From a virus (Duplodnaviria > Heunggongvirae > Uroviricota > Caudoviricetes): a DNA stretch of 55,083 bases. Shown one piece after another: positions 25,774-26,024 of this stretch; the stretch's first letter is position 1; each line of letters starts with the position of its first letter. The notes below the pieces were generated by a model that saw only the letters and a program-made list of their open reading frames with translations, had not been told where the DNA came from and searched no databases. A program made the translations under genes and the position numbers. The DNA is taken from the IMG/VR virus record IMGVR_UViG_2923307698_000002, positions 1 to 55,083 of that record; one strand, written 5' to 3'.

Positions 25774-25799
25774 TTTTGCCTCAGTTTATTTTTAATTCT

Positions 25800-25927
25800 A
25801 TCCTGTAGACTTAAATTAACGTGAAAGAGATGAAAAATCACTAACGCGGTCCGCATTTTTTCATTTAGCATGTTAAGAGTGGTTACTTCGCCACACAACT
25901 TAAACCCGCCGCTGAGCGGTTTTTTTG
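25800..25927 (+). promoter_or_regulatory. putative late promoter pR'/qut region and tR'-like terminator
   Basis: Intergenic region with promoter-like elements and a short hairpin CCGC-tga-GCGG plus T7 at 25909-25926, upstream of the late genes. Confidence 0.3.
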
Positions 25928-26024
25928 TACCTGTAAACCTGGTGCAGTACAGTAAACACGCTGGTTGTCGTGAATACTGACTTTTTATCTTGCTGGCATT
26001 TTAGACAAGAGTTATTGGTATGTC

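Follow-up and report, generated by a model that had tools for sequence, protein, structure and literature searches.

Among lambdoid phages, late gene control by Q proteins has been described in several forms. In lambda, the system of pR', qut, the 6S RNA and tR' combines a constitutive promoter, early termination, Q loading and processive antitermination, in a cassette that adjoins the gene for a Q protein of family PF03589. For phage 21 (Yin et al. 2019), the annotated record OL657228 gives a pR' with a QBE, an SDPE and a terminator; there the QBE is a direct repeat (ATTGAGCA/AATGAGCA) in the -35/-10 spacer, the SDPE is annotated as TAAGCTG at +2 to +8, and the cassette begins 7 nt past the gene for a Q of 162 aa. 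In phages 933W and VT2-Sakai (Sp5), whose Q belongs to family PF06530, pR', which is paired with tR', drives stx2 and yields the StxS RNA. Mapping by dRNA-seq (primary start of the Sakai pR') and by Term-seq (3' end at tR') has put 258 nt between the two (Sy et al. 2020, PMC7547250). The Sakai cassette overlaps the end of Q, with 9 nt between stop codon and -10 hexamer, and its leader runs to +258 with the StxS sRNA inside it. A further arrangement is found in the defective prophage DLP12 of Escherichia coli K-12, where a PF06530-type gene, quuD, is followed by the antisense porin gene nmpC, interrupted by IS5, and then by a pR'-like cassette 2.9 kb past quuD and 110 nt before the holin gene essD.

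Here we examine a related locus in a 55,083-nt viral DNA (IMG/VR record IMGVR_UViG_2923307698_000002), the whole of which is called the window. An earlier note, made from the letters alone, had placed the late promoter region of this phage at 25774-26024, about 1.6 kb downstream of Q, and had suggested that an antisense module was inserted between Q and its site of action. We consider it highly probable that a narrower functional core of about 95 nt, 25833-25927, is a Q-controlled late promoter pR', with its Q-loading site and first terminator, belonging to the Q encoded at 23853-24215. This reading is carried by homology to a mapped pR', by the comparison of empty and occupied sites, by a link between an upstream palindrome and the Q clade, and by a conserved terminator structure. 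The features of the locus are as follows.

22840-23835, plus strand: DUF968 gene, in a lambdoid prophage segment
23853-24215, plus strand: gene for the Q antiterminator, 120 aa, Q21/933W family (Pfam PF06530)
24222-24252, both strands: hairpin of 12-13 bp where the ends of Q and the cargo converge (terminator scan, hits on both strands)
24234-24665, minus strand: cargo ORF of 143 aa (ORF call)
24640-24903, minus strand: cargo ORF of 87 aa (ORF call)
24910-25773, minus strand: cargo ORF of 287 aa (ORF call)
25795-25800, minus strand: candidate cargo promoter -10, TAGAAT as read from the minus strand, inside cargo-specific DNA
25833-25838, plus strand: A-tract AAAAAT, about -45 to -40, where the cargo slot ends on its right (25833 is the first position homologous to the empty-site phage 1720a-02)
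25846-25854, plus strand: palindrome GCGGTCCGC, centre about -28, candidate Q-binding element, conserved with the Q subtype
25866-25871, plus strand: predicted pR' -10 hexamer TAGCAT, aligning with Sakai TATCAT
25872-25882, plus strand: nearly invariant GTTAAGAGTGG with the probable start, an A at about 25878; common to both Q clades
25879-25894, plus strand: leader hairpin 1, GUGGU-UACUUC-GCCAC (folding of the window and variants)
25902-25926, plus strand: predicted first intrinsic terminator past pR', with 4-5 G-C pairs, an A:U extension and a T7 run (terminator scan, folding)
26025-26252, plus strand: 75-aa ORF, first gene after the proposed pR' (ORF call, match to phrog_331)
26403-27455, plus strand: N6/N4 DNA methyltransferase (ORF call, family match)
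27455-27488, plus strand: second terminator-like hairpin with T run, at the methyltransferase stop and holin start (terminator scan)
27460-28693, plus strand: lysis genes for holin, lysozyme and Rz, the late operon that pR' would serve (ORFs; homologues annotated in related phages)

The Q of the window matches PF06530 over its full length (E 3.7e-53) and shares 48-53% identity with 933W-type Q and 74-97% with 80 IMG/VR relatives; against the crystal and cryo-EM chains of Q21 the match is weak (E 7.5e-4) and covers residues 8-86 only. The gap from the Q stop to the first minus-strand ORF is 18 nt, and by ORF layout 25774-26024 is the first real plus-strand intergenic region past Q. The hairpin at 24222-24252 is terminator-like in both directions and probably serves as such. 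A search of 23800-27600 against Rfam gave no hit, the sole sub-threshold match, a miRNA-like one, falling on that hairpin. The locus is present in bacterial chromosomes: 23853-26402 is 100% identical to prophages of three complete E. coli genomes (CP015085 among them) and at least 99.6% identical in eleven complete E. coli genomes.

The closest relative with a mapped start is the Sakai promoter, where the sequence downstream of Q reads AAAAAATAG TTTACG ATCGTAAAAATCTGCA TATCAT GATAAGAGTGGTTACATTGCCACGCAGTCGAACCCGCCGATGCGCGGGTTTTTTTGTAC, and where TTTACG-N16-TATCAT makes a good sigma-70 promoter. Because coordinates in NC_002695.2 are shifted relative to the.1 version used in PMC7547250, the mapped start was carried over by means of the 258-nt spacing. 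In our Sakai locus (L087), the T run at 3210-3215 is the only one at 258 nt from a -10-like hexamer, which would put the start at about 2957, an A 7 nt past TATCAT. The stx2A coordinate of the.1 version would likewise give 2957. Between the -10 and the T run, the window and the Sakai/933W pR' share a 27-nt block with 23 identical positions, and both end in TTTTTTTGTAC; the -10, GTTAAGAGTGG, the GTGG..CCAC hairpin and the first hairpin with its T run are homologous, and the palindrome lies at the same spacing from the -10. From the Sakai start and this homology it follows that the -10 of the window is probably TAGCAT (25866-25871) and the start the equivalent A, at about 25878. Three differences stand beside these likenesses. 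The Sakai palindrome TTTACGATCGTAAA supplies the -35 TTTACG with a 16-nt spacer, whereas GCGGTCCGC in the window comes without a -35; the distance from Q stop to -10 is 9 nt in Sakai and 1,650 nt in the window, in agreement with the 1.6 kb, past the antisense operon, of the earlier note; and the part of the Sakai leader that runs to +258 with StxS has no counterpart in the window.

The other described systems resemble the window more in plan than in sequence. Phage 21 shares with it the Q family and the order of parts, in which a Q site precedes the start, a terminator comes about 50 nt into the transcript and lysis genes follow, and its SDPE (TAAGCT) resembles TAAGAG in the window. Its QBE, however, is a direct repeat in the spacer rather than a palindrome at -28, its Q has 162 aa against 120 aa, and the alignment with its pR' that had been proposed as a check found no DNA similarity to the window. 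Lambda shares the constitutive promoter, early termination, Q loading and processive antitermination expected of the window; it differs in Q family, in the position of its cassette next to Q, and in DNA that is unrelated. The DLP12 cassette (NC_000913 573000-579500, local positions 4196-4290, our L170) aligns with the window over 55 nt at 91% identity (E 5.5e-15). It contains TTTACGTACGTAAA, TATGCT and GTTAAGAGTGGTTACTTCGTCAC, and runs on from GTTAAGAGTGG to a hairpin and the terminator. It shares with the window the succession of PF06530-type Q, antisense gene and cassette, and differs in its 933W-type palindrome TTTACGTACGTAAA, in a cargo that is a porin and not defence-like, and in the defective state of the prophage. 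Judged by sequence, the cassette of the window is of the known Q21/933W-family late control type, with a different upstream palindrome.

Promoter-like elements had also been claimed for the region, a claim that has support from homology, TAGCAT aligning with the -10 of a mapped pR', and none from consensus matching. A generic sigma-70 scan made zero plus-strand calls in 25774-26024, and over a 4-kb region it found 7 sites against 6.4 expected, which is chance level. A recognisable -35 was sought and none was found, AACGCG standing at 17-nt spacing where 933W-type loci have TTTACG or TTTACA. In the subtype of the window the palindrome thus takes the place of the -35, and the promoter may therefore depend on the A-tract. 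The A-tract at 25833-25838 resembles the proximal subsite of the UP-element consensus and may be UP-element-like; an A-rich run occupies this position in nearly all of the 82 tabulated elements (81 of this Q subtype plus that of PhiR40_1). At the -10 position, 71 of 83 loci have TAnnnT, with the middle three bases free, and the remaining 12 have CAGTAT. A search of the 55-kb window for the composite motif GCGGTCCGCA-N10-TANNNT-GTTAAGAGTGG gives a single occurrence, and 100 shuffles give none. Across loci, the consensus layout runs from the A-tract through (C/T)(A/T)nTAnnGCGGTCCGCA, about 10 variable A/T-rich bases and TAnnnT to G(T/A/C)TAAGAGTGG, a GTGG..CCAC hairpin, (A/G)CTTAA, and a G+C-rich hairpin with a T run. 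More speculatively, TAAGAG/AAGAGT within GTTAAGAGTGG could be a pause signal, by analogy with the phage 21 SDPE TAAGCT and the lambda pause elements; a conserved TAnnnT pause element downstream of +1 was sought and, unlike in phage 21, none was found. The top sigma-70 consensus match nearby is on the minus strand at 25998-26026 (ATGACA-17-TAAAAT, 10/12). This match, which overlaps the 75-aa ORF at its start, is directed back at pR' and the cargo; the region is kept in all related phages, including those free of cargo.

We surveyed loci with this Q subtype in 80 IMG/VR records (Q 74-97% identical to that of the window), which are mostly E. coli prophages and not independent samples, together with phages cdtI, 1720a-02 and PhiR5_1. 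An exact-block search missed 27 loci, and a profile search recovered all except two contigs, matching same-subtype loci at E 1e-11 to 1e-17. The cassette was found downstream of Q, on the same strand and in one copy, in 81 of 83 loci (window included), the two others being contigs that end at Q or 1.4 kb past it. This constancy, with the homology to the Sakai pR', supports the identification of the region as a late promoter region. In 11 empty sites (1720a-02, PhiR5_1 and nine IMG/VR loci) the -10 sits 21-32 nt past the Q stop, much as classical lambdoid phages have it; in the other 70 loci of the subtype it lies at 853-2,751 nt, with varied cargo between. PhiR40_1, whose 933W-type Q is 51% identical to that of the window, has its -10 at 618 nt from Q, and 80 loci with 933W-type Q carry the same cassette either 9 nt past Q or 0.8-1.6 kb away. 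That the same cassette occurs at empty and occupied sites upholds the idea of a module placed between Q and its site of action.

The boundaries of the element emerged from megablast of 25774-26402 against phage genomes, in which matches begin at three points: at 25833 in cdtI and 1720a-02, at 25871 in PhiR40_1, and at 25903 in mEp460, Ayreon, SfV and the Stx2c phages. In 1720a-02 and PhiR5_1, the homologue of 25833 onward begins at the stop codon of a same-subtype Q, and in cdtI and PhiR40_1 one or two antisense genes lie between Q and cassette. Ayreon and SfV carry a lambda-family Q (PF03589) and have sequence in common with the window only from the terminator stem onward. Since match onsets follow Q type, 25833-25902 travels with the type of Q, as a Q-specific module, and 25903 onward is a common downstream module. 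Position 25903 is itself a sharp recombination joint, SfV, Ayreon, mEp460 and 15 Stx2c phages, all with a lambda-family Q, being 95-99% identical from there on and unrelated upstream.

Within the Q-specific module, the palindrome is the part that changes with the Q clade. GCGGTCCGC is present in all 81 elements of the window's Q subtype, exactly in 76 and with one substitution in five. Loci with 933W-type Q, including PhiR40_1, Sakai and K-12 DLP12, have TTTAC(G/A)ATCGTAAA or TTTACGTACGTAAA at that position; the 933W-type palindrome, TTTACGATCGTAAA or TTTACGTACGTAAA (also written TTTACG(AT/TA)CGTAAA, and in PhiR40_1 TTTACAATCGTAAA), is centred at an equal distance from the -10. The palindrome at -28 thus differs by clade, GCGGTCCGC versus TTTACGWWCGTAAA, at a fixed distance from the -10. 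Across Qs that are 74-97% identical, the palindrome, TAnnnT and GTTAAGAGTGG are strongly conserved while flanking and spacer bases drift. GCGGTCCGC is likely the Q-binding element of these short Q proteins, an assignment made from co-variation only. A role of the palindrome as a minus-strand terminator was considered and rejected, since it persists in cargo-free loci.

The space between Q and the cassette has definite limits. In an alignment of Q 3' ends, occupied and empty sites are alike up to the L-(D/E)-M-D codons and then diverge, so that the slot is bounded by the last Q codon or two (about 24212) and by the A-tract at 25833. At empty sites Q is longer by 6-7 C-terminal residues (DWLLKK or similar), whose codons overlap the pR' A-tract. 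Occupied-site Qs end at L-D/E-M-D (24195-24215, compared with 2980-3001 of the empty-site locus L004), and cargo occupancy thus appears to trim the tail of Q.

In the window the slot holds three antisense genes. For the 287-aa protein there are matches to the PADLOC candidate defence family PDC-S42 (E 9.8e-33), to NCBIfam LAPAL_fam (E 2.7e-61), whose label is 'LAPAL motif-containing putative phage structural protein', and to phrog_3243; its partners of 87 and 143 aa have no family match and look membrane-associated. The same three genes fill the slot in at least eight other loci (L007, L024, L026, L030, L037, L042, L085 and L086). Translation of the first of them would start at a TTG at 25773 behind a minus-strand GAGG ribosome-binding site, and the candidate -10 of the cargo's own promoter, TAGAAT, faces away from pR'; the consensus scan passes over this hexamer, the best -35 (TTCACG) being 19 nt away. 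Across the surveyed loci (L001-L086) the slot holds at least 13 unrelated cargo sets, among them TIR-TM, HNH effector-like/PDC-M68A, NYN and KAP NTPase proteins, a 657-aa AAA_15/AAA_21 ATPase and a lipoprotein, and in cdtI a DUF6731 protein with a membrane protein as its partner. Of the 71 occupied loci, 69 have antisense cargo; many loci are near-duplicates, and the set reduces to about 13 independent antisense cargo types against one or two sense types; the exceptions, L077 and L051, carry a sense-strand SMEK_N-domain protein. Compared locus by locus, the slot is a recurrent exchange site and not the product of one insertion event, and the displaced-cassette arrangement is common in E. coli prophages, K-12 DLP12 included. 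A search of a limited body of literature found no account of a Q-pR' cargo slot, a palindromic Q site or a 933W-type QBE, which is weak evidence of absence.

The predicted transcript opens AGUGGUUACUUCGCCAC and forms a 5-bp hairpin. This leader hairpin 1 folds in the window and in most variants, with register shifts and, in L007, a G-C to A-U double change; RNAalifold retains only 3 of its pairs. It could play a role in pausing, RNA stability or Q loading. The T-run terminator that the earlier note had seen in the region corresponds to the hairpin and T7 run at about 25902-25926, where the terminator scan gives a stem at 25908-25920 followed by TTTTTTTGTAC. In 27 diverse leaders a 7-pair stem with a T run is structurally conserved although stem sequences differ, with covariation at one AU/CG pair and C-G/U-G changes besides, and in Ayreon and SfV a terminator is annotated at the homologous site. 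Sakai transcripts extend to +258 and so evidently run through the homologous hairpin, and with a stem of only 4-5 G-C pairs this suggests that termination in the window may be partial. In Sakai itself, the conserved hairpin and T7 run (L087 2981-3006) lie at about +25 to +50, well before tR' at +258; its structure recurs in every leader examined, and it may be a partial terminator that has gone undiscussed. The presence of StxS, the 74-nt sRNA between pR' and tR', was considered for the window and rejected: Sakai +50 to +258 gave a best E of 0.14 against the window, and 23800-27600 had no Rfam hit, the window leader ending at about +48.

Downstream, the 75-aa ORF and the methyltransferase follow the cassette as a pair also in cdtI, PhiR40_1, 1720a-02, Ayreon and SfV. 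The hairpin and T run at 27455-27488, whose homologous sites carry a terminator annotation in Ayreon and SfV, would place the lysis genes behind two terminators.

Taken as a mechanism, sigma-70 RNA polymerase would start at about 25878 by way of TAGCAT, possibly aided by the A-tract, a good -35 being absent, and in the absence of Q the hairpin and T7 run would stop transcripts about 45-50 nt further on. Upon induction, rightward transcription of the early genes would yield Q, which would recognise its own site, most likely GCGGTCCGC near -28, and load onto polymerase held near the promoter; the modified polymerase would then pass both terminators (the next at about 27455-27488), transcribing the 75-aa ORF, the methyltransferase and the lysis genes and continuing past them. 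Where the slot is empty, as in the ancestral layout, the cassette begins at the Q stop codon. In the window the space from the last Q codon to the A-tract is filled by the three antisense genes (24234-25773), whose own promoter would face away, and only early transcription past Q would meet them, head-on. Since the probable start at about 25878 lies downstream of the cargo end at 25773, late transcription would not cross the cargo, a proposal of the earlier note that follows from this geometry.

Three other explanations of the locus can be set against a Q-controlled pR' at 25833-25927, and all are disfavoured because each conflicts with the empty sites, the single motif copy or the conservation pattern. 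The true Q promoter might lie at or in the 3' end of Q, so that late RNA would run antisense through the cargo and 25833-25927 would be a mere terminator or insulator. The -35 and A-tract of pR' do overlap the coding end of Q in 933W/Sakai, and the hairpin at 24222-24252 could then be a terminator overridden by Q. Just 18 nt separate the Q stop from the cargo, however, and the neighbourhood of Q contains neither cassette nor palindrome motif; homology between occupied and empty sites is lost in the last Q codons and picks up again, with the cassette complete, at 25833, and it is this cassette, not the 3' end of Q, that carries the conserved -10. We regard this as the least probable of the three, and as extremely unlikely.

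The palindrome and A-tract might instead serve the cargo, as a minus-strand terminator or as the operator of a divergent promoter, with the link to Q arising by hitch-hiking. The minus-strand AATGCGGACCGCGTT with its T-rich tail was indeed flagged as terminator-like, and a candidate cargo promoter lies about 65 bp off, facing the other way; yet the palindrome occurs equally in the 11 cargo-free loci and with at least 13 unrelated cargo sets, and its 933W-type equivalent is A/T-rich, contains the -35 and is ill-suited to a terminator, which leaves this explanation very improbable, ranking just ahead of a promoter at the end of Q. Highest of the three, and still very unlikely, is a fossil cassette in a subtype that has no working Q switch, its late genes being served by another promoter, for example one upstream of the 75-aa ORF or methyltransferase. 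A cassette that has no -35 consensus and a terminator stem of 4-5 G-C pairs would suit such a state, and 25930-26024, kept in related phages of any Q type, could hold a Q-independent promoter. Against decay stands the strong conservation of the palindrome, TAnnnT and GTTAAGAGTGG while the spacer drifts; the subtype is moreover found in inducible, propagated phages (cdtI, PhiR40_1-like and 1720a-02), and a plus-strand scan of 25930-26402 gives only a 9/12 match at 26107, within the ORF. A functional pR' at 25833-25927, under the control of its own Q, thus remains the preferred reading.

It is quite possible, if not quite probable, that in Q21/933W-family phages at large the last Q codon and the pR' A-tract flank a dedicated, orientation-constrained cargo slot, and that the short Qs recognise clade-specific palindromes at about -28. 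If so, antisense genes in the slot would be expressed in the lysogen, outside late transcription, and opposed by early transcription after induction; their products would comprise candidate defence proteins (PDC-S42, TIR-TM, HNH, NYN, KAP NTPase and OLD-like ATPases) and porins (nmpC), and the palindromes at -28 would form a class of Q site apart from the direct repeats of phage 21. Since displacement of the cassette from Q is widespread, the finding in the window is correct and only moderately surprising. For this prophage family it would fix the start of late transcription, and with it the annotation of the 75-aa ORF and methyltransferase as late genes and of the three antisense genes as not late. 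It also indicates that kilobases of DNA can come between Q and its site of action and leave the switch unchanged, and in E. coli prophages it marks the gap between Q and pR' as a place to seek defence or conversion genes expressed in lysogeny. The palindrome that differs by clade is, last, a concrete candidate for Q specificity, open to test, in the medically relevant 933W family, whose Shiga toxin output is under the control of Q and pR'.
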